Assembly (NCBI GenBank): GCA_963840935.1
Contig: CAWJAS010000001.1
Span: 512,875-576,874, forward strand
DNA: 64,000 nt
Direction of reading: 5' to 3'
Origin: Candidatus Magasanikiibacteriota bacterium
Lineage (GTDB): Bacteria > Patescibacteriota > Patescibacteriia > Magasanikbacterales > GWA2-37-8
Shown: piece by piece, positions 15,959 through 42,635 of the stretch
Position numbering within the stretch: the stretch's first letter is position 1
Layout of the letters: every line of letters starts with the position of its first letter
Notes under the pieces: model-generated
What the model saw: only the letters and a program-made list of their open reading frames with translations
What the model was told of the DNA's origin: nothing
Database searches by the model: none
Made by a program: the position numbers and the translations under genes

Positions 15959-17641
15959 ATGGAAGAAAAACAAACAGCAAGTAATAACATGGTTGGCAGG
16001 ATAATTTTTTTCGTTTTCATTGCCGTAATTCTGGGTTTATTTTGGTATTTTAGCCGTGGCGAAAAAACAGATATTGCCAGCCAAAACGAAGAAAGCACGG
16101 CCATCAGGGGTAGTATTGTGTATGTTGATGGGGCTGTGGAATACAAAGAAAAGGACGGGGATTGGAAAAGAGCGGAATTGAATACAGATATAAAAGAAGG
16201 GAATTCAGTAGAAATTGTGGGCGAGGGGAAAGCAATCATTAATCTTGACGACGGTTCCGCGGTTCGCATGGACAGCGATTCACTAGTCGAATTTACATCA
16301 CTTGAACCGAATCACATATTAATCACGAATAACAACGGCCAAGTTTATACTCGCGTAGCAAAATTAACCGACAGAGTTTTCGAGGTGTCGGCAGGCGATG
16401 TTATTTATGAGTCAATGGGAACAGCGTACAAAACAATCAATAAAGAAAAAATAAAAGGGGTGGAAGTTTATCAAAGTAAAGTTAAAATAAAAGGAGCGAC
16501 TGAAGATGAGGTGGTGGTTGAAGAGGGGAATAAATATTTGGTACAAAACGACGCGGACAAAAAAATTGAAAAAACAATAGTTAAAATTGCCGTGGCGGAC
16601 ACGGAAAAAGATGAGTTTGTAAAATGGAATATGGCGGAAGATGAAAAAATGACGCAAAGCGATGGTGATGAAACCGCCGAGTCGGCATCGACAAGCGAAA
16701 CCACGCTTGAAGAAGAAACTGCGGTTGTGGTCGAAAATACCGAGGCAACATCCGATGGAATAGTGCTGGTTGGCAAACAAGTTTCCGATGGAGTAAGTTT
16801 GACTTGGACAGTAAACGGACTCGAAACACCCGACGGATTCAAAGTTGTGAGAAGTTTAACCACAGACCCTGTTTACCCGGGTGATAATTATTACTATTTA
16901 TCTTCACCCGACGCGCGAGCGCATAAATGGGCGGTTAAAGACGGAAAAACATATTATTTTCGAGTTTGCCAATATATTGACGGTAAATGCGTGTTATACA
17001 GCAATAACGTAAAAGTGACCGCGCCGAAAACGACCGAAACAACAACCTCAAACAGCGGGGATGTTACATCTCTTTCAATCAGTCATGTTGGTAGTGGAAA
17101 AGTATCTTGGACTTTAAAGGGTTATTCAGACCAAGGTTTTAAAGTGGTTTGGTCAAAGAATTCCGGTCCGACCTATCCAACCAGAAGCGGAGACAAATAT
17201 TTGTATTATTCGGACCCGGCGCAAAGAAACGCTGTGGTTACCGCTTTTGACGGTTACGGAACATATTATGTGCGCGTCTGTGAGTATTTGGGCGGAAAAT
17301 GCGGAGTTTATTCCAATCAGATTACCGTAACACTGGGCACTCCGGAAGAGACATCCGGTGGAGATGTGTCCTCAATTTCTTTAACATCGCTTGGTGGCGG
17401 AGATGTGCGCTGGAAAACAAGCGGTTATTCTGAAAGCGGATATAAGTTGGTTTGGTCCAAGAATTCAAGTCCGACTTACCCGTGCCGAAGCGGGGACAAA
17501 TATGCTTATTACAGCGACCCAGAAACAGTAACCGGCGAAATTAGCGCTTTTGATGGAGAGGGCAAATATTATGTGAGAGTTTGCGAATATTTGGGCGGAA
17601 AATGCGGTGTTTATTCAAATCAAATTGAAATTACATTATAA
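15959..17641 (+). CDS. membrane-anchored surface protein with three ~100-aa tandem repeats (beta-sandwich-like), FecR-like N-region
   Basis: N-terminal TM; repeats each ending ...YYVRVCEYLGGKCGVYSNQI.VTL; repeats 2 and 3 near-identical at nucleotide level. Confidence 0.6.
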   Translation: MEEKQTASNNMVGRIIFFVFIAVILGLFWYFSRGEKTDIASQNEESTAIRGSIVYVDGAVEYKEKDGDWKRAELNTDIKEGNSVEIVGEGKAIINLDDGSAVRMDSDSLVEFTSLEPNHILITNNNGQVYTRVAKLTDRVFEVSAGDVIYESMGTAYKTINKEKIKGVEVYQSKVKIKGATEDEVVVEEGNKYLVQNDADKKIEKTIVKIAVADTEKDEFVKWNMAEDEKMTQSDGDETAESASTSETTLEEETAVVVENTEATSDGIVLVGKQVSDGVSLTWTVNGLETPDGFKVVRSLTTDPVYPGDNYYYLSSPDARAHKWAVKDGKTYYFRVCQYIDGKCVLYSNNVKVTAPKTTETTTSNSGDVTSLSISHVGSGKVSWTLKGYSDQGFKVVWSKNSGPTYPTRSGDKYLYYSDPAQRNAVVTAFDGYGTYYVRVCEYLGGKCGVYSNQITVTLGTPEETSGGDVSSISLTSLGGGDVRWKTSGYSESGYKLVWSKNSSPTYPCRSGDKYAYYSDPETVTGEISAFDGEGKYYVRVCEYLGGKCGVYSNQIEITL

Positions 17642-17645
17642 ATAT

Positions 17646-18179
17646 ATGAATAGAGATAAGATTTTCGCCATTGCCACCATCGCTCTTGCCATTTGCGTGT
17701 TTGCATTTTTCGTCATTTCCGGACGACCGGTAAATAACGGGGATAATAACGCTGATTTGGCCTCAGAAAACCAAGAAGTTTTGACAGAGGAATCTGTTGC
17801 TACCGATGAAACGGCAACAACCACCCCAACGAGCACTCCGGAAGAAACAACAGTGAAAAAAACAACACCGGTTAAAACAACAACGCCGGCGCCCGGGGCG
17901 ATTACACAGTCTTACGCGGACGCGTTAAAAATTTACAGCACGAGCGGATATAGATTTCAATTTGTGAACTGCAAGGCAACTCCCGGAAAATTTACTATTA
18001 AGAAAGGCGCCAAATTCATGCTTGATAACCGCGATAATGTGGCACACAAAATCAAAGTCGGGTCTGTTAATTACAATATTGGCGCCTATGGCTTTGCCAT
18101 AGCGACAGCCAAGACTTTGGGATTGAATTACATCACTTGCGATGGCGGAGGAGCGGCTCAAATTCAAGTTGAACCGTAA
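17646..18179 (+). CDS. membrane-anchored secreted protein with Thr-rich linker, unknown function
   Basis: atg 17646 (MNRDKIF) preferred over 17607 which overlaps upstream gene; TM then ETATTTPTSTPEETTVKKTTPVKTTTPAPG linker. Confidence 0.5.
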   Translation: MNRDKIFAIATIALAICVFAFFVISGRPVNNGDNNADLASENQEVLTEESVATDETATTTPTSTPEETTVKKTTPVKTTTPAPGAITQSYADALKIYSTSGYRFQFVNCKATPGKFTIKKGAKFMLDNRDNVAHKIKVGSVNYNIGAYGFAIATAKTLGLNYITCDGGGAAQIQVEP

Positions 18180-18197
18180 AAATTTGCGATAATATAC

Positions 18198-18227
18198 AAA
18201 AAAACCCTGTTTTGCAGGGTTTTTTTG
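18198..18227. terminator. bidirectional rho-independent terminator
   Basis: aaaaaaccctg-ttttg-cagggttttttt. Confidence 0.75.
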
Positions 18228-18233
18228 GTGTTT

Positions 18234-18347
18234 TTAGTAATTGACTTTTCGCTTTTCGCGAAGTTTTTTTGTTTGAGAAGCAAGTTTTTTGCCCATTTTG
18301 GTGTTTTTTCTGGCGTGCTTGATTCTGCTTTTTAAGGCGCTATTCAT
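18234..18347 (-). CDS. small basic protein (37 aa, MNSALKSRIKHARKNTKMGKKLASQTKKLREKRKVNY), not in supplied ORF track
   Basis: atg 18347..18345 preceded on minus strand by perfect TTGACA-17-TATAAT promoter and followed by the bidirectional terminator at 18198-18227. Confidence 0.4.
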   Translation of the reverse strand: MNSALKSRIKHARKNTKMGKKLASQTKKLREKRKVNY

Positions 18348-18376
18348 AATTTATGGATTATTTGAACACAATATTT

Positions 18377-18405: not shown

Positions 18406-18438
18406 CCCTATGTAGTGTAGCAATTACTACATAGGGTC
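18406..18438. promoter_or_regulatory. perfect 11-bp inverted repeat ccctatgtagt-N9-actacataggg
   Basis: Abuts the -35 of the minus-strand promoter; candidate operator/UP-site or transcript-insulating hairpin. Confidence 0.4.
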
Positions 18439-18683
18439 AAGATGGAATAATTTGCGGTTTTTTTCAACGGGTGGGTTATCCACAGCCCGAGCCAAACAAT
18501 CCTTTTATATAGCAAAATAACTTGCTATAATATACATAAGATTTATTAATTATTTATATGGCGCAAGCATGCTTGTGAGCGTCAATCAGGTCGAATAAAC
18601 AATTGATATTTCTTGCAAAAAGGTAGTGGGTCCGTCGATAATTTGCTACCTTATTAATTTACATTTAATTATATATATTAATT

Positions 18684-19286
18684 ATGAAAAAGATTTTAGC
18701 AATAGTGGCTGCGTTCGCAGTTGTTGGCTTCAATGGGTTTATGCTCATGGAAGGCGCTGTGACACAAGCACAAGATTCCGATGCCTGGAATGTAACATTA
18801 TCAGTCACCTCAGAAATAGCAGTAACATGTGATGATGTCGGTGGTGATTTAGCACTTGCTCCGGCAATCCCAGGTATGACCGGTGGTTCTGCTACCGCAG
18901 AAACAACATGTAATGTTGAAACAAGTAATGATGATGGGTGGACATTATCAATCATAGATGATAATGGTGATTTTGGTGCAATGATTGATGGTGGAAATTC
19001 AATAGACGCATACCCGACTTCGACGCCGGCCGCATGGGTATTAGACAGCACATCAGCTGCCTATTACGGTTATTTTGCCTCCAGCTCATTCGCAACAGGT
19101 GGTCATGGGTATAACTTATATCGCGATCTTGATAACGCCGGTGACGATGTAGCTACTGATTCAGAAGAAACTGGCCCTACCGGTGTAGATGTTGTTTTCG
19201 GTTTTAGAGCCGAGATTGGCAATACTGCCAACCAACCGAGTGGTGACTATGTTTCTAACGTTACTGTAACTGCTACGGAAAACTAG
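18684..19286 (+). CDS. secreted surface protein, WxL-domain-like (paralog A)
   Basis: Sec signal peptide; GWTLSI motif and C-terminal ..PSGDYVSNVTVTATEN resembling WxL-domain termini; paralogous to 20362..21141 (IPGMTGGSATAET vs IPGLSGGTATGSTEA). Confidence 0.35.
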   Translation: MKKILAIVAAFAVVGFNGFMLMEGAVTQAQDSDAWNVTLSVTSEIAVTCDDVGGDLALAPAIPGMTGGSATAETTCNVETSNDDGWTLSIIDDNGDFGAMIDGGNSIDAYPTSTPAAWVLDSTSAAYYGYFASSSFATGGHGYNLYRDLDNAGDDVATDSEETGPTGVDVVFGFRAEIGNTANQPSGDYVSNVTVTATEN

Positions 19287-19347
19287 ATTGTTTATTGACT
19301 GAATGCCGTAATTGCGGCATTCAGATGAATTAATAATTTAATAATAT

Positions 19348-20355
19348 ATGAAAAAAAATATTTTTAGGGGAGGTATTTTGGCTTTTATTGTATGTCTTTT
19401 CATAGGAATGAACGTTAGTGCTTTTAATATTGAAAGTTTAGAAAACCCAAGGATTGATAATGATTTTGTGGTTGGGCCCGGTAAAACAGAAATAAGAATA
19501 AATCCGGGCGAGACATCGGTCAAATCAATTACAGTAACTAATCGATACGCGACAGAAAGATTATTTAATATTGAAATAGAGGATTTTACATCTCCTGATG
19601 AAGGCGACAGCTCAGGGGTAATTAAATTACTTGGCGAAGAAAAAGGCCCTTATTCATTGCGCGATTATTTAAAACCGGATGAAACATCTTTTGTGTTACA
19701 AAGCGGTGATAGGGCGACAATTAGAGTTGAAATTAATATCCCGGAAGACGCAACTCCGGGTGGTTTATACGGTGCCGTTATTGTTTCGCACGAATCAACG
19801 GATCCGCTTGAAGTTGCCCGTGAAAACGAGGTCGCTGGTGGTATTAAGCTTAAAAATAGAATTGCTTCATTGTATTTTGTCAGAATAAACGGCGATGTTT
19901 TTGAAAATGGTGAATTAACCAGTTTTGATTCTGACAAATCTATTTACAAAAACGGACCGATAAAATTTGATTTTAAGTACAAAAACACGGGTTCAATCTA
20001 TGTAAATCCATACGGCGTTATTGAAATAAAAAATCTTTACGGTACCCTTGTTGAAAAAATTAATGTTCTGCCATATTATGTGATGCCTGGCGCAGAAAGA
20101 TTAACCACAAAGGTGTTTGACCGTGAATTCACCATGGGCAGATACAAGGCGACTCTCAAATTAAATCGCGGATACGGTGATATAATTGACGAAAAAACAG
20201 TTGTTTTCTGGGTTTTGCCGATCAAAATGGTCGCCGGAATTCTTATCGGATTATTCCTTTTGCTCGTCATTATCCGCGCTATTAGAAATTGGTTCAAGAA
20301 AAACTTTGAATATAAAGGCGGGAAAAACAAAAATCAAGCACCGCCACAAGAATAA
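19348..20355 (+). CDS. cell-surface protein with C-terminal TM anchor, DUF916/DUF3324-like two-domain architecture
   Basis: Signal peptide, two Ig-like beta-rich domains, C-terminal hydrophobic anchor VVFWVLPIKMVAGILIGLFLLLVII followed by basic tail; same arrangement as the membrane-anchored partner in Firmicute WxL/csc loci. Confidence 0.35.
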   Translation: MKKNIFRGGILAFIVCLFIGMNVSAFNIESLENPRIDNDFVVGPGKTEIRINPGETSVKSITVTNRYATERLFNIEIEDFTSPDEGDSSGVIKLLGEEKGPYSLRDYLKPDETSFVLQSGDRATIRVEINIPEDATPGGLYGAVIVSHESTDPLEVARENEVAGGIKLKNRIASLYFVRINGDVFENGELTSFDSDKSIYKNGPIKFDFKYKNTGSIYVNPYGVIEIKNLYGTLVEKINVLPYYVMPGAERLTTKVFDREFTMGRYKATLKLNRGYGDIIDEKTVVFWVLPIKMVAGILIGLFLLLVIIRAIRNWFKKNFEYKGGKNKNQAPPQE

Positions 20356-20361
20356 AGAATT

Positions 20362-21141
20362 ATGGATTTAATGCGGAGCGCGATTCAATCAATAATTTTT
20401 ACTGGACTCATCCTAATTACCGGCGTTTTTATAACGCCGGTTTTTGGGCAAGTAATGGAAAGCAGTAATTGGAAAATCAGCCAGGATTCAATTAATTTTG
20501 GCGGTGGCTGGAGCGCGAGCACAAGCTATTCAATGGAAGACACCTACGGAGAAATCGCTACCGGATGGTCGTATTCGGATGAATACTCGCTTCACGCAGG
20601 TTATCAGCAAATGGACCAGGAAACCTATATTAGTTTGACTATGGCAACCGCAACAACCATGTTGCCTTCAATTCCAGGATTGAGTGGGGGAACAGCAACC
20701 GGTTCAACCGAAGCAGTGATCAAAACAAATAATGTTATTGGATACACGCTCGAAATCAACGCTTCAACAACGCCCGCCATGCAAAAAGCCGATTTATCAA
20801 AATATTTTTCCGATTATACCCCGGCCGGAGCAAATCCGGATTTTAATTGGCAAATTTTGAGCACCACCTCAGAATTCGGATTTTCACCAAAAGGCGATGA
20901 TGTGGTGCAAAAATATTTGGATAATGGAACAAGTGAATGTAATGAACCGGGTGGGTCTAATACGCCAGACAAATGTTGGGATAACTTTGCTTTAACAGCC
21001 AAAGTTTTGAGTATGTCCGCATCCGCAAATGAAACCGGCGCGACCACCACAATTAATTTACAAGCCGAATCAGGAAATGAAAATGTTCAAGTATCGGGTT
21101 CTTATTACGCCAATCTAACTGTAACCGCTTATGTCAATTAA
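20362..21141 (+). CDS. secreted surface protein, WxL-domain-like (paralog B)
   Basis: Signal peptide; GYTLEI and C-terminal SGSYYANLTVTAYVN matching paralog A. Confidence 0.35.
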   Translation: MDLMRSAIQSIIFTGLILITGVFITPVFGQVMESSNWKISQDSINFGGGWSASTSYSMEDTYGEIATGWSYSDEYSLHAGYQQMDQETYISLTMATATTMLPSIPGLSGGTATGSTEAVIKTNNVIGYTLEINASTTPAMQKADLSKYFSDYTPAGANPDFNWQILSTTSEFGFSPKGDDVVQKYLDNGTSECNEPGGSNTPDKCWDNFALTAKVLSMSASANETGATTTINLQAESGNENVQVSGSYYANLTVTAYVN

Positions 21142-21808
21142 AATAAATTGCCATATTAATAAAAAAATACTGTTTGGCTCGCTGTTTGCGTTGTTATCGG
21201 CCGGGGCGGTTTTTGCGGCGACTAATAGTTGGATAGTTTCTCTCCAAGTAACTTCACCTGTTGCAGGCACTGTTCGCTGGGCGATTCCCGAGGGTAGAGT
21301 GGGGGCTTCAAGCACAAATTGGGATACGACTTTTTATTTGGCGGTGAGACCGGCTGATGACGCTGATACATCAATAATTTTTGCCATGGATACACTTGCT
21401 TCAACCACAGTGGCGGGTGAATACACGACGCCGATTACTTTTACAGGCGTAACGAACAGTTCAACATATGACGTGGCTTTTAAAAGCCACCAACATATCA
21501 GTTCCAAGCTTAATAATGTATTTTTGGATGCCGGCAATAACTCCTTGAATTTTACACAACCCGATAATTCGATTTTTGTTGGTCCTCTTCGATTGTTTGC
21601 GGGCGATATTAACGGAGCGGGTGATTCACCTGCAACTTTGGGTGATAACTCAATAAATTCAGTTGATTTATCCATTCTTTTGGGCAATCTTGATTATGAT
21701 GACCCAACCACACGCGGTATTAGAGCGAATTTGAATCAAGACACTATTATTAATTCTGTTGATTTAGGCATGTTGATTGATAATCTTGATAAAGAAGGGG
21801 ATATATAA
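21131..21808 (+). CDS. secreted protein with C-terminal dockerin-like Ca-binding repeat pair
   Basis: Signal peptide; GDINGAGDSPATLGDNSINSVDLSILLGNL and NLNQDTIINSVDLGMLIDNL duplicated dockerin-type segments. Confidence 0.5.
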   Translation: MSIKINCHINKKILFGSLFALLSAGAVFAATNSWIVSLQVTSPVAGTVRWAIPEGRVGASSTNWDTTFYLAVRPADDADTSIIFAMDTLASTTVAGEYTTPITFTGVTNSSTYDVAFKSHQHISSKLNNVFLDAGNNSLNFTQPDNSIFVGPLRLFAGDINGAGDSPATLGDNSINSVDLSILLGNLDYDDPTTRGIRANLNQDTIINSVDLGMLIDNLDKEGDI

Positions 21809-21827: not shown

Positions 21828-21862
21828 AAAATCCCGTCAGCCCAGGCTGACGGGATTTTATT
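21828..21862. terminator. bidirectional rho-independent terminator
   Basis: aaaaatcccgtcagcc-cag-gctgacgggatttta between convergent genes. Confidence 0.75.
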
Positions 21863-21916: not shown

Positions 21917-23008
21917 TTAATTTAATAAGTACCATTTGCCGTCAATGTATTCAAACGGATAAACAAGTTCGTGGCCATTGACAAGCACTGTAATTATCAC
22001 CGCTTTATCAATAAGCAATGAATATTTATTGAGATTAAATTTATCAACCACGACAACGCTTTTTATTATTAATTCCTGGTCATTTACGTTTTCCGGTTTT
22101 ATCCCGCTTGAATACGCGCTAATAAAATCGCTTTCCGCCACTTTTGCTTTAATAGTCGGTGAAATATTATTCAAATATATATCCGAATATCGTCCTCGCG
22201 CTTCGGCATCAATAATTTTTATCAAATTATTAAACAAAGCCACATCAAACAATATGTTCATTTCTTCAGTTTTTTGTTTGGCCGGAGGTAAAAACACGAG
22301 CGGGCGTAAAAGTTCATTGTGAGTCGCTTTTATACCCTCATTCACGGCAATATTATTGAATATATAATGACCCGAACCGGAAGTGCGGATGGATGTGTTG
22401 TTGTAAACCAAATCAATATTCGCCACTCCTGTTTTATCGAGCGGATGAAGAACTTGCCCTTTAATTTCATCAACAACAGTAATTTTTGGTGTATTATTGA
22501 ATAATCCCGATAAAAAGTTGGTTTTTCGATTCAAATATAAGCCCGCAACGACTGTTGCCACCCAGGCAAGCGCGCAAATAAGCAGGGCATATCGCAAATA
22601 ATGATGCGCAGTATTTTTTGGCTGAATTTCAACCGGTCCATCAGCTGAGCCGGGTAAATTAACTAAACTTCTTTCTCGCTTACTCGCTTTTCTGGCAAAT
22701 AATAATAAAAATGTGGATAAAAACAAAATTACGCCTGTAAGCAAAAGTAACGGCCAAATCAAATAACCGGGCACCGCATCATTCATTTTTTGAATAAATA
22801 CAGGCTCTGTTTTTATTGATTCTGTTTTTGGCGTATCTTTAACAACATACATTATGGCTTGGTCCATATTGCCGTATTCATCCTCAACCGACACAATGTG
22901 CGCTCCGGCAGGCAAGTTATTATCAATAACAATGTTCCAATCACCCGTGTTATTGCTTTCCAAATTGTATGTTTTCGGCGCCTGGGCCAAATGGGTTATT
23001 TGATTCAT
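21917..23008 (-). CDS. hypothetical single-pass membrane protein
   Basis: Central TM helix; 1-nt gap to upstream large surface-protein gene (operon). Confidence 0.5.
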   Translation of the reverse strand: MNQITHLAQAPKTYNLESNNTGDWNIVIDNNLPAGAHIVSVEDEYGNMDQAIMYVVKDTPKTESIKTEPVFIQKMNDAVPGYLIWPLLLLTGVILFLSTFLLLFARKASKRERSLVNLPGSADGPVEIQPKNTAHHYLRYALLICALAWVATVVAGLYLNRKTNFLSGLFNNTPKITVVDEIKGQVLHPLDKTGVANIDLVYNNTSIRTSGSGHYIFNNIAVNEGIKATHNELLRPLVFLPPAKQKTEEMNILFDVALFNNLIKIIDAEARGRYSDIYLNNISPTIKAKVAESDFISAYSSGIKPENVNDQELIIKSVVVVDKFNLNKYSLLIDKAVIITVLVNGHELVYPFEYIDGKWYLLN

Positions 23009-23009
23009 A

Positions 23010-25481
23010 TTAATAAATGGTCATTAATAATTTTGTGGATGGTTCGGCGGTGCCGTTAATTGAAATCACGCTATCGTCATCGCTAACATTTTGAATTTGA
23101 ATATTCAATATTTTTACAAGCTTTTCAAGCAATGATTCAGGCGCGGGCGGAGAAATTACCGGTGGAATAACGGATGTTGCCGGGGGCGCAGTTGGAGTTG
23201 TCGGACGAATCGTTGTGGCTGGAACGGTTGGGCACACTGGGCAAGCGGGGCAGGCCGGGCAAGCTTCACATTCCGGCTCAGGGCCCGTGAATGATGTTTT
23301 GAAAACAGGAGCCATGCTCATTTCTGTGCCCAAAACCACATTGCCGGCCATGTTTGAAACAGGTTTAAAGTAATATAAATTTCCTGGTTCTAAACCGTTC
23401 ACCACCACGCTGTGATAGGTTGAATTATCGGCGTATGTAACAGTTGAATAATCATAATTATAATTTGGTTCACTGCCCATGGTTAGGGGTGAATCAGTGC
23501 CATAAATTACTCTGGCGTCGCCCGGCATGCTTGTGTACCATGTAACCAAAACCGAATTCTCATCAATTTGCGCGACACTCGCGTTCAAAGTATTAATTGA
23601 CGCCACAGGTGATGACCCACCGCCACTTGGGGGAGTTACAGAGCCCCCACCACCGGTACCGATACAAAGAAGCAAAGAATCACTCCAAGAAGTGTTTGAA
23701 CCGCAGTATGCTGAACCCGATGGACAACCGGCACCACTAACAACAAGCCCATAAACATACCGCTCCATTAAATTGTTTGTAGTATCTCGTGAATAAATTA
23801 TCACGGGAACTGACTCGCCGACGGCAAAATTCACCGGCGGGTCAATTGTGATGGTGTAATCATTCGCCGTGCCACTCACGCCAAAAGTTTGGCTTGATGC
23901 ATAGGTAATTCTTGTGCCGTTTGTGGTAACGGTTCCGGCGCCACCGGCACTTGTGTAATATGTGCCGTTTACATAAACCACAGTATTTGCCAAATCAACT
24001 CCGGTTCCATCATCTTTTATGTGAAAAACAATATTATCCGCCTGGGCTATAACCGCGTCATTTGCCGGGTTTAATCCATCAACATACGGAGTACCTGAAT
24101 CAACGGTAGAAAATGTGTAATTATCGGTTGTCATTGTATTTGCCGGGCTAGCCAAGTCCGTGCAATCATAAACACTAATGGACACGGTTTCGTTTTGGCC
24201 AAAATCAGTGGTTGGATTGATATCAAATGAATATCCATAATTTATGGCGCTCACAGTCACACCGGCGTCGCCTTGGGCAAATACAGTATTGCCAAAAGTG
24301 GCGGATTGAACCCGAATTTTGCAAGTAGCCGGGTTTACTCCGGTGCCTGAAGGACCGCTAGGATATGATTTTCTGTCTGTAATTTGAACAGTGACATTCG
24401 TATTGACGGCAACTCCACTACTGCCTCGCGCCGGTGATTCGGCCTGCACTCTTGGGGCGACAGTGTCGGATTCTGTGGTAAATGTCCATGTTTTTGTGTC
24501 TACTGTATTTGGCCCGTTCGTGTCACCCAATTGATCTTGATTTGTTGAGGCGCGATCCTCATAATTACTTATTTGCACCGAATATGTAGTATTGTAATCC
24601 CAATTTCTGGTGTCTCCGGGAATTCCTGAAGGACTTGTTGGATTGACGGTTGTAACACACAAATTCGTGCCCCAAATACCCGAACATGAATAGCTTGCGA
24701 AGGGTAAATAATTTACAGAATTAAAAGTAATTGCTCCGGTCGCCGTGTTTACACCCGTTCCCACTCCACTATCATCGCCTTCGCCATTCTTGGAATCCCT
24801 CAAATCAAAGGTGTAATTCCCATCAATAGTGAATCCCGAACCGCCGTTAGTCGGACTTGGATTTTGAGCGTATGGAATTTTTGTATCCGCCCAAATGTGA
24901 ATTTCAAAATCCTCGGCATCTTCCAAAATATCATTGCCCAAGTATGAAATATTTGACTCGGTGGTATTGCCAATCGTACCTATATTAATATTGATTGTTT
25001 GAGGAGAGGTTGTTCCGTAACTGGCCACAGTTGGATAAAAAGCCGTGGTTTGAAACGAACCGAATGTGCCAAGCCCGCTTGAATAACCTTCGGTTCTGTA
25101 GCCGGTCATTCGCATTCTATAATTAGATCCGCTGACCAGAGTCGTTGTGACACCGGACCAAGTGGGGAAATATGTGCCGGTAGACAATCCGGTTGTGGAG
25201 ACATATTGCCCGTCATAATCAACCCAGATGTTTGAAGCATTGGTGTGGTCGGAAGTGATCTGAATGGTTTCGGTCCATGTTTGGCCGACATAATAGTAAT
25301 TCAAATCATCGGCCGAGCCGGTCCCGCCGTCTCCTGTATTGTCACTGCCGGTGTAGGGAGAAGCCGTGAGTTGAAACCAATTTGTTCCACTTGGAGTCGC
25401 CGCTATGGCAATTGTCACAAATAATAACGATAAACAGACAATTATCCCGGCGGATAAAGCCATTTTTTTGGTAAATTGCAT
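23010..25481 (-). CDS. large secreted Thr/Gly/Ser-rich surface protein (adhesin-like, FN3-like segment, Pro-rich and Cys-Pro-Ala-Cys-Pro C-terminal region)
   Basis: Signal peptide MALSAGIIVCLSLLFVTIAIAATP; FN3-like LVTWYTSMPGDARVIYGT...LEPGNLYYFKP; CEACPACPACPVCP; visibly GC-richer than flanks. Confidence 0.55.
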   Translation of the reverse strand: MQFTKKMALSAGIIVCLSLLFVTIAIAATPSGTNWFQLTASPYTGSDNTGDGGTGSADDLNYYYVGQTWTETIQITSDHTNASNIWVDYDGQYVSTTGLSTGTYFPTWSGVTTTLVSGSNYRMRMTGYRTEGYSSGLGTFGSFQTTAFYPTVASYGTTSPQTININIGTIGNTTESNISYLGNDILEDAEDFEIHIWADTKIPYAQNPSPTNGGSGFTIDGNYTFDLRDSKNGEGDDSGVGTGVNTATGAITFNSVNYLPFASYSCSGIWGTNLCVTTVNPTSPSGIPGDTRNWDYNTTYSVQISNYEDRASTNQDQLGDTNGPNTVDTKTWTFTTESDTVAPRVQAESPARGSSGVAVNTNVTVQITDRKSYPSGPSGTGVNPATCKIRVQSATFGNTVFAQGDAGVTVSAINYGYSFDINPTTDFGQNETVSISVYDCTDLASPANTMTTDNYTFSTVDSGTPYVDGLNPANDAVIAQADNIVFHIKDDGTGVDLANTVVYVNGTYYTSAGGAGTVTTNGTRITYASSQTFGVSGTANDYTITIDPPVNFAVGESVPVIIYSRDTTNNLMERYVYGLVVSGAGCPSGSAYCGSNTSWSDSLLLCIGTGGGGSVTPPSGGGSSPVASINTLNASVAQIDENSVLVTWYTSMPGDARVIYGTDSPLTMGSEPNYNYDYSTVTYADNSTYHSVVVNGLEPGNLYYFKPVSNMAGNVVLGTEMSMAPVFKTSFTGPEPECEACPACPACPVCPTVPATTIRPTTPTAPPATSVIPPVISPPAPESLLEKLVKILNIQIQNVSDDDSVISINGTAEPSTKLLMTIY

Positions 25482-37434: not shown

Positions 37435-37992
37435 ATGAATTTTGTGCAAACAGCTTACGCCACATCACACGAAACGGCCGAGGTCGTCGTCGAACAAGGC
37501 TTGCTCGGCTCAATGGGTATTGATTTAAAAATGTTCATCCTTCAATTGGTAAACTTGGCCATTGTTTTTATTATTCTTTGGTTTTTGATATTAAAACCGC
37601 TGACTAAAAAAATGGCGGAACGTCAAAAAACAATCGACGAAAGTCTTGAAAATTCAAAAAAGATAGAGCAGATGCTCCAAAAATCCGAGGATGATTACAA
37701 AGACCAAATGCATACGGCAAAGACTGAGGCAAATCAAATTTTAGAAAAAGCAAAATTGGACGCCGAACTGACCGCGGAATCAATTAAAAAAAATACAAAA
37801 AACGATATTGACCAAATGGCGCTTACGGCCAAAAAAAACATAGATGATGAAAAACAAAAAATGGTCGCGAACTTTAAAAATGAGGCGGCTGATATTGTGG
37901 TACTCGCCCTTAAAAAAATCGTTTCCAACAATTTTGACACAAGCAAAGATAAAAAGGAGATTGATGACGCTCTTGAGATGATAAATAAATAA
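37435..37992 (+). CDS. atpF: F0F1 ATP synthase subunit b
   Basis: Single TM then long charged helix; operon position. Confidence 0.8.
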   Translation: MNFVQTAYATSHETAEVVVEQGLLGSMGIDLKMFILQLVNLAIVFIILWFLILKPLTKKMAERQKTIDESLENSKKIEQMLQKSEDDYKDQMHTAKTEANQILEKAKLDAELTAESIKKNTKNDIDQMALTAKKNIDDEKQKMVANFKNEAADIVVLALKKIVSNNFDTSKDKKEIDDALEMINK

Positions 37993-37995
37993 ATT

Positions 37996-38385
37996 ATGAA
38001 AAAAAATAGCGTCAAACAATACGCCGTGGCTTTGCACCAAGCGCTCGGCCTGGTAAAAAAAGAAAGCGACACCAGCGCTATTTTAAAAAATTTTAGCGCT
38101 TTGTTGGCCCGTGAAAAATTGTTAAAAAAATCACCGGCTATAATCAAAGAATTCGTCAAATATTCCAATGAAAAAGAGGGTATCGAAAGCGTAGAGGTCA
38201 AATCCGCTCGTCCGCTTGATAAAAAATCCATTGAAGCGATAAAAAAATATTTTGGCAACAAAATTATTTTGACCGAAAAAATCGACACGGAACTTATCGG
38301 TGGAGCGGTAATTAAAACAAAAGATTATATTATTGACGGCAGTATTCTAAAACATATTAATAATTTAAAACAACAGTTAATATAA
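37996..38385 (+). CDS. atpH: F0F1 ATP synthase subunit delta (short form)
   Basis: C-terminal ELIGGAVIKTKDYIIDGSI OSCP-like signature; operon position. Confidence 0.7.
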   Translation: MKKNSVKQYAVALHQALGLVKKESDTSAILKNFSALLAREKLLKKSPAIIKEFVKYSNEKEGIESVEVKSARPLDKKSIEAIKKYFGNKIILTEKIDTELIGGAVIKTKDYIIDGSILKHINNLKQQLI

Positions 38386-38391
38386 ATCACT

Positions 38392-39888
38392 ATGTCCATA
38401 AACAGTATTTTGGAAGAATTAAAAAAGAATATATCTTCTTTTGAAAAAAAAGTGGAAACCGAAGAGGTTGGCGAAATAATTGACGTGGGCGATAACATAG
38501 CGCACATCAGCGGGCTGAGAAATTGCCAATCAAGTGAGATGCTTGAGTTCCCGGGTAACTCATTCGGAGTGGCGCTTAACCTTGAAGACGAGACCATCGG
38601 CGCGGTTCTTCTTGGCGAGTCAAAACACTTGAAAGAAGGGGATACTGTGAAAAGAACCGGAAGAATATTGTCTGTTCCGGTGGGCGAGGAATTAATTGGC
38701 CGTGTGGTTAACCCTCTTGGTTCGGCAATTGACGGAGGAAGTGAAATAAATACAAAAACTTTTTATCCGATTGAAAAAATCGCGCCGGGCGTCATGACAA
38801 GAGAACCGGTGGCTGAACCATTGCAAACCGGCATCAAAGCTATTGATTCAATGATTCCGATTGGACGCGGTCAACGCGAATTAATTATCGGAGACAGACA
38901 AACCGGTAAAACGGCCGTGGCAATTGACACTATCATAAACCAAAAAGGCAAAAACATGATTTGTGTTTATGTGGCAATCGGCCAAAAAGAATCAAAAATC
39001 GCAAGAATTGTCACCAAACTCAAAGAATCGGGAGCAATGGACTATACAATCGTTGTTGTGGCCGGCGCCTCGGACCCCGCTTCGACCTTATATTTGGCTC
39101 CATACGCCGGAGTGGCGATGGCCGAGTATTTTATGGACAAGGGCAAAGACGTGCTTTGCGTTTACGACGATTTATCAAAACAAGCTTGGGCTTACAGAGA
39201 AATATCACTATTATTACGACGCCCGCCGGGAAGAGAAGCTTATCCGGGCGATGTTTTTTATCTTCACTCAAGATTGCTTGAACGAGCTTGTCGCAGAAAT
39301 AAAGAAGCCGGCGGAGGTTCAATTACCGCTCTGCCTATCATAGAAACTCAATCCGGCGATGTAACGGCCTACATTCCAACCAATGTTATTTCGATTACCG
39401 ACGGCCAAATTTATCTTGAATCTGATTTATTTTACCGTGGAATCAGACCGGCTTTAAACGTCGGCTTGTCGGTATCGCGCGTCGGTTCGGCGGCGCAAAT
39501 AAAACCAATGAAAAAAGTGGCCGGTAAATTAAAATTATCAATGGCGCAATTCAGAGAGTTAGAAGCTTTTGCGCAATTCGCCAGTGATTTGGACCCGGAA
39601 ACGAAAAAACAAATAAATTTGGGTCAAAGATTGGTTGAAATATTAAAACAACCGCAATACACCCCAATGTCCGTTGCCAATCAAGTGGCTATAATTTATG
39701 CAGTATCGAACGGGTACGCAGAAAATATCGACGTTAAAAACATTGACCGTTGGGAAACAAAATTTCATCAATTCATCAATAATTCAAAATCTTTATTGCT
39801 CGAAAAAATTGAAGGTGGCGATTGGAATGAAGAAATAGAAAATGAATTAAAATCTGCTTGCGAAGAATTCGCACAAATGGCGGAATAA
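38392..39888 (+). CDS. atpA: F0F1 ATP synthase subunit alpha
   Basis: GDRQTGKT Walker A, full-length alpha. Confidence 0.95.
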
Positions 39889-39894
39889 TCAACT

Positions 39895-40794
39895 ATGGCT
39901 TTAAACACAAAAATAATTAAGCGCAGAATCAAATCCGTTGGTTCAACAAAGAAAATCACCAAAGCGATGGAGATGATTTCTGCGGTCAAAATGAGGCGCG
40001 CTGTGGCCAATGTTTTGGCTACTCGAAACTACGCCTCGCTAGCCTGGCAAATGCTTGTTGATGTGGCCGGAAAAACAAACGTCAATTTGCACCCACTGCT
40101 CGTCAAAAGACCAATTTCAAAAATTGCGCTAATTTTAATCGCTTCAAACCGTGGTTTGGCCGGCGGTTTTAATAGCAGGGTTTTAATGGAAGCAAACTCA
40201 TTTTTAAAAAAATTTCAAGACACGGCGCAAAACATTGATATATTTATTAACGGAAAAAAAGCCAGAAAAATATATCATCAATTTGGATATAATATTGCCG
40301 CAGAATTCGAAAAATTGGATTTAACTCTTAACATTAATGAAATATATCCGATTTCAAAAATGATAATTTCCGATTACAATGAAAACAAATACGACGCCGT
40401 ATTTTTATGCTACACCGATTACATATCAGCGATAAAACAAATTCCGAAAATTAAAAAACTATTACCGCTTGGGCAGGAACCGGATTCAACGCTCGGGGGG
40501 ATCGGGGAATCGGAAGCAACCAAATTAAAAAAAGATGAAATTGAATTTTTATTTGAACCGAACCCGGTTGAAGTACTAGACACTTTACTGCCCAAATTAA
40601 TTGAAATGCAAATTTATCAAGCGGCTCTTGAATCCGATGCTTCAGAACACAGCGCGAGAATGATGGCAATGCGAAACGCTTCCGATGCCGCCGAAGAAAT
40701 GATTAACGAATTAAATTATAATTTTAATAAAGCCCGCCAAGCTGCGATTACGCAAGAAATTTCCGAGATCGTAAGTGGCGCCGCGGCCTTATGA
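39895..40794 (+). CDS. atpG: F0F1 ATP synthase subunit gamma
   Basis: IKRRIKSVGSTKKITKAMEMISAVKMRRA N-terminus, C-terminal ITQEISEIV. Confidence 0.9.
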   Translation: MALNTKIIKRRIKSVGSTKKITKAMEMISAVKMRRAVANVLATRNYASLAWQMLVDVAGKTNVNLHPLLVKRPISKIALILIASNRGLAGGFNSRVLMEANSFLKKFQDTAQNIDIFINGKKARKIYHQFGYNIAAEFEKLDLTLNINEIYPISKMIISDYNENKYDAVFLCYTDYISAIKQIPKIKKLLPLGQEPDSTLGGIGESEATKLKKDEIEFLFEPNPVEVLDTLLPKLIEMQIYQAALESDASEHSARMMAMRNASDAAEEMINELNYNFNKARQAAITQEISEIVSGAAAL

Positions 40795-40797
40795 TAA

Positions 40798-42183
<1,386 letters not shown>

Positions 42184-42197
42184 AAATCCTCGTAAAT

Positions 42198-42635
42198 ATG
42201 CAAAAAAAAATAAAATTTCAAATCATAACCCCCGAACGAGTTGTATTTGCCGATGAAATCGACCAAGTTTCAGTTATGACAAAGGATGGTGAAATAACAA
42301 TTCTACCGAACCATTTGCCGATTATATCTGTTTTACAAATTGGCGAATTAAGATGTAAAAAAGATGAAAAAGAATATTCAATGGCCGTAACCGGAGGGTT
42401 TGTTGAAGTTAAACCCGACAGTTCGGTTGTCATCTTGGCTGATGTGGCAGAAAAAGCAGAAGAAATTAATATTGAAGAAGCCGAGCTAGCCAGAAAAAAA
42501 GCTTTAGAAACAATGAAAGAACAAAGGACAATGGACAGCCTGGAATACGCAGCTCTTCAAGCGACACTTAACAAAGCGCTTATGCGCCTAAAAGTAGGGA
42601 ATAAATACAAAAATATTAAACCGGGCATCAGATAA
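42198..42635 (+). CDS. atpC: F0F1 ATP synthase subunit epsilon
   Basis: Operon position, beta-sandwich + helical hairpin length. Confidence 0.8.
   Translation: MQKKIKFQIITPERVVFADEIDQVSVMTKDGEITILPNHLPIISVLQIGELRCKKDEKEYSMAVTGGFVEVKPDSSVVILADVAEKAEEINIEEAELARKKALETMKEQRTMDSLEYAALQATLNKALMRLKVGNKYKNIKPGIR

Follow-up and report, generated by a model that had tools for sequence, protein, structure and literature searches.

A conserved operon of secreted proteins in a Candidatus Magasanikiibacteriota genome: a candidate minimal, Pam-like surface-fibre system with a WxLIP-family chaperone

INTRODUCTION

Bacteria of the CPR (candidate phyla radiation) are thought to live attached to hosts, and little is known of the molecules that make the contact. 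Among CPR-specific filaments, the first for which a structure exists is the Pam pilus, which was described in a 2026 preprint for Candidatus Mycosynbacter amalyticus, which belongs to the Saccharimonadia (bioRxiv 10.64898/2026.03.03.709456). There, PamA and PamB, both of which have paired cysteines, form donor-strand-exchanged filaments as seen by cryo-electron microscopy, while PamC and PamD, described as PapD-like with a C-terminal transmembrane (TM) helix, were proposed to be membrane-anchored chaperones, PamT a single-domain tip subunit, and PamR an Fn3/TM anchor. A tail-fibre-like protein is central to the pam neighbourhoods, and ATP synthase genes are conserved neighbours; the Pam pilins occur mainly in Saccharimonadia and Microgenomatia, and the evolutionary origin of the pilus was stated to be open (bioRxiv 10.64898/2026.03.03.709456). 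WxL and DUF916 are never mentioned in that preprint. Here, we analyzed a cluster of four genes, A, B, C, and D, at positions 18684-21808 of a 64,000-nt stretch (the window) of contig CAWJAS010000001.1 from a Candidatus Magasanikiibacteriota bacterium, which had been predicted from its sequence to encode a WxL/Csc-like surface complex together with a dockerin-repeat protein.

WxL/Csc clusters are the second system with which the locus must be compared. In the literature, this system is almost wholly confined to the Bacilli. Based on an AlphaFold2 prediction, the WxLIP paper describes a strand from the DUF916 domain of WxLIP that completes the sandwich of the WxL domain; such a predicted parallel insertion has the same geometry as donor-strand complementation by a chaperone.

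RESULTS AND DISCUSSION

An operon of secreted proteins with a conserved core

We favour the reading that the locus encodes a minimal, usher-less, Pam-like chaperone/donor-strand surface-fibre system with a WxLIP-family chaperone, to which we assign a probability of about 0.58. The four open reading frames (ORFs), A (18684-19286, 200 aa), B (19348-20355, 335 aa), C (20362-21141, 259 aa), and D (21131-21808, 225 aa), lie on the + strand; 61 nt separate A from B and 6 nt separate B from C, whereas C and D overlap by 11 nt. Each protein has one hydrophobic, signal-like N-terminal segment and belongs to a conserved protein family, and the description of the cluster as four co-directional genes for secreted proteins stands. 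The block is bracketed by two bidirectional terminator-like hairpins. The hairpin at 18197-18227 (14-bp stem) ends the upstream gene and sets the 5' limit of the operon region, and the one at 21828-21859 (14-bp stem with 7 GC pairs) is common to the operon and a convergent p363/p823 unit. Because no comparable hairpin lies within the A-D block and the spacing is tight, A, B, C, and D form one terminator-bounded operon of secreted proteins.

Like the Pam pilus, the locus belongs to a CPR genome and combines putatively Sec-exported parts, a candidate two-immunoglobulin (Ig)-domain PapD-like chaperone with a C-terminal TM helix, and subunits with paired cysteines, one of which (C) is a remote homolog of the single-domain subunit PamT, and it likewise has no usher. 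The neighbourhoods of the A-B-C triad in related genomes also resemble those of pam genes in that they encode Fn3/TM and tail-fibre-like proteins, and the window matches them loosely in having ATP synthase genes 16 kb away. Unlike the Pam locus, it lacks pilins of the two-domain kind (PamA, PamB, and PamE), has only two single-domain subunit types and one chaperone, belongs to a Parcubacteria/Magasanikbacteria-like lineage, and carries D, p823, and p363 instead of a PamR-like protein. Because the Pam system has been described and NCBIfam models for it exist, the locus is not a new kind of system. What appears to be new with respect to the literature examined is the sequence-level link between a CPR chaperone-like protein and the Firmicute WxLIP, the minimal form with three genes, which has no PamA/B-type pilins and is common among Parcubacteria-type CPR, and an accessory module of D, p823, and p363 with dockerin-like and split-Ig features.

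B is a homolog of Firmicute WxLIPs

B, the candidate membrane-anchored chaperone, consists of a signal peptide, a DUF916-like and a DUF3324-like domain, and a C-terminal TM helix. A second hydrophobic segment spans residues 283-317, and the AlphaFold2 model (predicted local distance difference test [pLDDT] score 93.4) has two beta-sandwich domains followed by a helix at residues 292-319, which is the architecture that had been predicted for B. The two-domain fold superposes on the chaperones of chaperone-usher systems (PapD/FimC type). The motif KGPYSLKDYL is the most conserved in B and lies in a long, poorly structured loop of domain 1 (residues 79-107). We note that the B protein in the public record (P0121, 325 aa) begins 10 codons after the start of the longest ORF (335 aa), which leaves the domains unaffected.

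The suggestion that B is the DUF916/DUF3324-type partner protein was borne out by three comparisons. First, the window protein matches Pfam PF06030 (WxLIP_PGBD, formerly DUF916) with E=1e-4 and 22.8 bits, below the cut-off of 27.3, while 63 of 105 B-family homologs match the same model (best E=1.1e-7). Second, the sole significant sequence match of the B-family profile in the PDB is the solved WxLIP of Enterococcus faecium, EfmWxLIP1 (9i25 and 9i1y; E=3e-5). Third, using Firmicute WxL clusters on plasmids of Lactococcus, Lactiplantibacillus, Enterococcus, Listeria, and Vagococcus, we aligned eight genuine WxLIPs and eight genuine small WxL proteins as reference profiles for hhalign; the B family aligns to the WxLIPs with 97.4% probability (E=1.5e-11) over 224 columns that cover both domains. 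The Pfam DUF3324 model had no match in the B family. These data support that B is, as judged from sequence profiles, a genuine homolog of the Firmicute WxLIP (DUF916-DUF3324-TM).

A and C are paralogous single-domain subunits with a predicted pilin-like fold

The predicted paralogy of A and C holds. The two proteins are 27% identical by BLASTP (E=1e-7), their families align by hhalign with 100% probability (E=4.6e-62, 195 columns), and the motifs IPG.(T/S)GG.AT, G(W/Y)TL.I, and SG.Y..N.TVTA are present in both and conserved across both families. On these alignments we regard A and C as paralogs that share one domain. In both families, a cysteine pair is conserved (Cys49/Cys76 in A, Cys193/Cys205 in C). 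C has a signal peptide, three repeats of ~17 residues at ~32-84 (S.NY.IQ.DS.N.GG, S.S..Y..EDT.GE.ATG, and S.S..Y.L.AGYQQM), and a beta domain at 90-259. A, a secreted single-domain subunit with a putative pilin-like fold, is without the first two of these repeats and keeps only the equivalent of the last part.

C matches the NCBIfam model NF058579 ("CPR-type pilus protein PamT") with E=4.4e-9 and 36 bits, and 98 of the 116 C-family members match it (best E=1.8e-18). We therefore classify C as a remote PamT homolog and not as an equivalog. In the AlphaFold2 model, the beta domain of C (90-259) is confident and the N-terminal extension (23-89) has low confidence. The top Foldseek matches of this model in the PDB are almost all chaperone-usher pilins, i.e. 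CfaB (E=1.2e-3), CsuA/B, FimF/G/A, PapE, and CS17, with TasA and cannula subunits also among them. The scores are modest, yet the specificity for pilins is striking, and the predicted fold resembles that of donor-strand-exchange pilins. Within C, conservation is highest in the N-terminal extension (median pairwise identity 53%, compared with 42.5% for the domain); high conservation in a segment that is unfolded in the monomer model is as expected if it folds onto a partner. In a separate search, the C-family profile had a marginal match to PDB entry 9jdi_C, "BtpiA" (E=0.026), which covers the first strands of the domain including the motif GYSLQL; no BtpiA paper turned up. The weakest C-family matches, which we considered as a route to true pam operons, led back to these triads, where they are ordinary A-like genes.

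The C-termini of A and C have features of chaperone-usher pilins. The protein ends exactly 11 residues after a near-invariant Tyr in 113 of 116 C-family and 52 of 64 A-family members. A Gly is found at position -14 in 99/116 C-family and 32/64 A-family proteins (42/64 if position -15 is counted as well), and the strand that follows it alternates strictly between hydrophobic residues and Thr, giving an amphipathic last strand. All five Fim subunits of Escherichia coli K-12 also have Gly at -14. In chaperone-usher systems, it is the C-terminal strand and its carboxylate that the chaperone recognizes. We read the fixed end, the Gly at -14, and the amphipathic last strand of A and C as a pilin-type signature.

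The locus thus shares with chaperone-usher pili (Fim, Pap, Csu, and CFA/I) the predicted subunit fold, this C-terminal signature, and a gene order in which the candidate major-subunit gene precedes the chaperone gene. In contrast to those systems, there is no outer membrane (the organism being a monoderm CPR bacterium) and no usher, the chaperone is membrane-anchored, and sequence-profile similarity is lacking. No gene for an outer-membrane usher is present in the operon or among the recurrent neighbours. Profile comparisons of the B family with FimC (0.1%) and of the C family with the Fim pilins (0.5%) detected no relation, and the parallel is therefore structural and motif-level only. Accordingly, an incomplete-Ig subunit with a conserved C-terminal strand, paired with a PapD-like chaperone, is recognizable here from structure and C-terminal motif alone.

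A and C are not WxL proteins as judged from sequence

A and C had been proposed to carry WxL domains. We rejected this identity after searching the 116 C-family members with Pfam and aligning both families with the eight genuine small WxL proteins. The Pfam WxL model has no match in A or C or, even with E<=1 accepted, in any of the 116 C-family members. In hhalign, the probabilities are 1.2% for the C family and 2.1% for the A family, and only the last beta-strand aligns. A W-T-L tripeptide occurs in A only, and its Trp is not conserved within the A family; the two W-x-L motifs with their defining Trp residues are not present in A and C. Genuine WxL proteins have variable tails of 6-31 residues, in contrast to the fixed termini of A and C. 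The pilin-like fold predicted for C is an outcome that the original prediction had itself named as speaking against a WxL assignment. No solved WxL structure was found in the PDB.

The resemblance to the WxL/Csc clusters of Lactobacillales and Bacillales therefore lies elsewhere, in a WxLIP homolog that matches over both domains and has a TM anchor, in the order of small subunit, WxLIP, and second subunit, and in the 1:2 composition. The locus differs from those clusters in that A and C are not WxL proteins by any test run, have no Trp-x-Leu platforms, and have fixed C-termini, and in that it encodes no large multi-domain WxL adhesin. A small LPXTG (CscD-type) protein is also lacking, as none of A to D ends in LPXTG plus a hydrophobic tail (D ends in ...DNLDKEGDI).

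The A-B-C triad is conserved across Patescibacteria

A scan of a genome collection with the B profile identified relatives in at least 165 species-level genomes. We kept 80 loci from Magasanik-, Buchanan-, Falkow-, Jackson-, Nealson-, Kaiser-, Campbell-, Zambryski-, and Nomurabacteria and from Paceibacteria. The closest B match in the scan is 56% identical, from which we conclude that the species of the window is absent from the representative genomes. Among 1.84 billion representative proteins, the B profile hit 10,454 clusters at E<=1e-3, of which 1,464 were at E<=1e-30.

For synteny, we searched all ORFs of 86 Patescibacteria loci with hidden Markov models (HMMs); 75 of these loci could be judged upstream of B and 83 downstream. 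An A-like gene lies directly upstream of B in 66/75 loci, in no case with a long extension, and a C-like gene lies downstream in 68/83, with the extension in 67 of the 68. The triad genes share one strand throughout, and the median gaps are 26 nt (A-B) and 10 nt (B-C). Thus, the A-B-C order is conserved across Patescibacteria, and the triad is widespread and not exotic. The expectation that such a complex would be unusual in an ultra-small bacterium does not hold, given this distribution and the related CPR pilus system already described. Median pairwise identities are 35% for A, 45% for B, and 45% for C, i.e. A evolves fastest, and in relatives A is sometimes duplicated, with up to three copies. 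As an example, in the metagenomic locus L095 (4902-9096) the B homolog is preceded by three A-like paralogs in tandem (232, 242, and 234 aa) and followed by a single C-like gene, which suggests diversification of a variable subunit.

Three other genes recur in the neighbourhoods. Directly after C, 60 loci have a gene for a protein of ~508 aa with Fn3 domains and a C-terminal TM anchor, an architecture as reported for PamR; 47 loci encode a "tail-fibre-like" protein of ~1100 aa with Peptidase_S74 or LVIVD; and 37 loci have an upstream gene for an HTH_17+TM protein. We note that the loci L017, L018, L019, L057, L067, and L078 and many loci titled "uncultured Candidatus Saccharibacteria" have the typical Patescibacteria operon, and that several such metagenome-assembled genome (MAG) records have the title "uncultured Gammaproteobacteria", "Nanoarchaeia archaeon", or "Azotimanducaceae". 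The oddly titled records are probably mislabelled or mis-binned. As some automatic MAG labels are plainly wrong to rely on, taxonomic counts based on titles are unreliable as well.

A proposed mechanism and the points against it

Under the favoured reading of a Pam-like fibre system, A, B, C, and D would be exported by Sec, and B would be retained in the membrane with both domains outside. B would then donate a strand from the KGPYSLKDYL loop to newly exported A and C and in this way cap their incomplete beta-sandwich (donor-strand complementation). This step is modelled on the insertion predicted for WxLIP and WxL and presumes that the two loops are equivalent in position. N-terminal strands of incoming subunits would displace the chaperone strand by strand exchange to give a thin fibre, and the last subunit would remain on B and so tether the fibre to the membrane. 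We favour an arrangement in which C would be at the tip or act as an adaptor, since it is PamT-like, conserved, single copy, and equipped with an extra N-terminal repeat module, and in which A would form a variable shaft, since it is encoded by the first gene, evolves fastest, and is sometimes duplicated; we hold the reverse order to be less likely. The fibre would likely serve in attachment to a host cell or surface.

Several observations weigh against this reading. The two-domain major pilins of the PamA/PamB type were not found in the window or, using family HMMs, in related loci, and NF058581 (Pam pilin C domain) is matched weakly by just 2/116 C-family and 1/64 A-family proteins. The PamT score of C (36 bits) is far under the NCBIfam equivalog cut-off of 240, and none of 64 A-like proteins has any PamT match. 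The B family matches no NCBIfam Pam chaperone model, although it is uncertain whether the library contains such models, and B, with its two-domain PapD/FimC-like fold and C-terminal TM helix, is likened to PamC and PamD by description only. In the published view, WxLIP is a static anchor and adhesin and not an assembly chaperone. Finally, no filament has been seen for this family, and polymerization and subunit order are inferred.

D belongs to a lineage-specific accessory module

D consists of a signal peptide, a beta domain of ~120 aa, and a duplicated dockerin-like calcium-loop module at ~158-220. Both dockerin-type repeats were confirmed, and no part of the D family is more conserved. The prediction of a dockerin-type tail holds at the family level, as 45 of 55 members match Pfam Dockerin_1 at E<=1 (best E=3.4e-5) and the best PDB sequence matches of the family are dockerins at residues 166-210 (E 0.03 to 0.5). 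The window protein itself stays far under the threshold, with 11 bits (E=0.51) against a cut-off of 22.9. As in type I dockerins, D has a duplicated calcium loop plus helix, and loop 2 (N-L-N-Q-D-x-V-V-N-S-V-D) follows the pattern N-x-N-x-D...N..D and fits the calcium-ligand positions 1, 3, 5, 9, and 12; unlike in type I dockerins, loop 1 is broken by an insertion of 9 residues, and neither a cohesin nor carbohydrate-active enzymes are nearby.

Downstream of the operon, on the - strand, lie p823 (23010-25481), which encodes a secreted multi-Ig/Fn3 surface protein (Big_5, Pur_ac_phosph_N-type Fn3), and p363 (21917-23008), which encodes a membrane protein; p823 is directly upstream of p363. A cohesin partner for D had been proposed. 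No cohesin was found with Pfam in p823, p363, or the products of the genes p560 and p190 upstream of the operon, or with PDB profiles in p823 and p363; the remainder of the genome, beyond the window, was not searched. The neighbourhood contains no glycoside hydrolases or carbohydrate-binding modules (CBMs). PDB-profile matches of p823 that were considered as cohesin candidates were ruled out, as they are matches of its Gly-rich linkers to single-chain antibody fragment (scFv) linkers.

D is present in 7 of ~86 loci. In all six of the other D loci, homologs of p823 and p363 follow D, always adjacent and in that order, and twice they are co-directional with the operon. D, p823, and p363 thus make up a lineage-specific module that stands in for the usual Fn3/TM "PamR-like" protein; its role is probably to dock or anchor extra surface domains.

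The junction between p823 and p363 is unusual. p823 ends in "...SVISINGTAEPSTKLLMTIY" followed by a stop codon, and the remaining strands are found at the start of p363 ("...YNLESNNTGDWNIVIDNNLPAGAHIVSVEDEYGN"). Of an Ig (Big_13) domain, the N-terminus of p363 matches the C-terminal half only. The stop codon is kept in six genomes (the window, L057, L052, L015, L023, and L018), with gaps of 1, 1, 1, 5, 6, and 4 nt. This conservation, with varying spacing and frame, rules out a frameshifted pseudogene or a sequencing error. In artificial p823-p363 fusions, a Big_13 alignment crosses the junction in 5/6 cases (best E=4.1e-5, below the Pfam cut-off), and in the window's own fusion Big_6 spans it. 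An Ig-like domain thus appears to be split over the two proteins, with the C-terminus of p823 supplying the missing first strands of p363, and secreted p823 may be tethered to the membrane protein p363 by inter-protein strand complementation.

Alternative explanations

The main alternative is a non-covalent complex of the WxL/Csc type, in which B, by strand insertion, would keep A and C permanently at the cell surface as monomers, A and C would be highly diverged WxL-equivalent modules for wall binding or adhesion, and no polymer would form. B is a true WxLIP homolog, a gene order with one WxLIP and two subunits is the commonest type of Firmicute cluster, no PamA/B-like major pilin is present, and the top hhalign alignment of A and C to WxL, although non-significant, falls on the C-terminal strand that contains the second WxL motif. 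Nevertheless, we consider this explanation unlikely, because WxL matches are lacking in Pfam and hhalign, the defining Trp residues are unconserved, the fixed termini of A and C differ from the variable WxL tails, and a CscD-like LPXTG protein is not present; moreover, the structural neighbours of C are polymerizing pilins, and its relative PamT comes from an operon with filament-forming products.

We hold it to be still less probable, and indeed quite improbable, that the main function of the cluster is that of a cellulosome-like scaffold, in which D would dock on a cohesin of a neighbouring surface protein, e.g. for attachment to polysaccharide. The family-level Dockerin_1 and PDB matches, the canonical ligands of loop 2, and the constant company of p823 and p363 speak for this idea. 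However, the presence of D in so few triad loci makes it accessory, the window protein is far under the Pfam threshold with an interrupted loop 1, and the searches of p823, p363, p560, and p190 for cohesins and of the neighbourhood for glycoside hydrolases and CBMs were negative. The synteny and profile data effectively refute the idea that the genes encode unrelated secreted proteins adjacent by chance, with similarities that are Ig-fold noise: dozens of genomes keep the gene order and the tight spacing, the B-WxLIP and A-C relations are highly significant, and the match lists are enriched specifically for donor-strand subunits and two-domain chaperones.

Implications for CPR and Firmicute surface systems

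If the favoured reading of a Pam-like fibre system with a WxLIP-family chaperone is correct, a simpler, three-gene relative of the Pam system is conserved over the Parcubacteria-type lineages, to which much of CPR diversity belongs. The homology of B to a Firmicute family with a solved structure gives the Pam system its first link outside the CPR and suggests that Firmicute WxL clusters, which function in colonization by Enterococcus and Listeria, may use the same chaperone-type strand insertion. Going further, we tentatively raise the idea, doubtful as it is at present, that the CPR Pam pilus and the Firmicute WxL/Csc system could be two branches of one ancient monoderm system consisting of a WxLIP/PapD-like anchored chaperone and strand-complemented subunits; the A-B-C triad would then be its minimal form, a fibre without usher or dedicated anchor, and p823/p363 a natural split Ig. 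With three proteins, the system is a small and tractable experimental target.

Upstream region and flanking genes

In the ~460-nt region upstream of A, the best promoter-like site on the + strand is TTTATA-16-TATAAT with a TG element at 18504-18531; this is weak evidence, as promoter-like sites are no more frequent here than in shuffled sequence. A search of the 460 nt upstream of A for a riboswitch or leader gave nothing over the Rfam thresholds and generic terminator-hairpin matches only. The "intergenic" stretch contains a small, very basic ORF on the - strand at ~18240-18352 (MNSALKSRIKHARKNTKMGKKLASQTKKLREKRKVNY), which may encode an unannotated small ribosomal-type protein. It is preceded by a promoter at 18405-18377 (TTGACA-17-TATAAT with TG) that is the region's only perfect sigma-70 consensus. 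Between the divergent promoters, at 18408-18440, lies a perfect 11-bp inverted repeat (CCCTATGTAGT...ACTACATAGGG), which had no Rfam match above threshold and could be an operator or a leader hairpin.

Further upstream, p560 (15959-17641, + strand) encodes a protein that combines a FecR domain and a TM segment with three tandem repeats of ~95 aa; all three repeats have a conserved end, the motif "...YYVRVCEYLGGKCGVYSN", with a Cys pair. Of the relatives, only the closest, L013 and L052, keep p560 and p190 (17607-18179) beside the operon. On the other side, at a distance of 16 kb downstream, the + strand carries an operon for an F-type ATP synthase (37435-42635), of which Pfam confirmed the subunits b, alpha, gamma, and beta.

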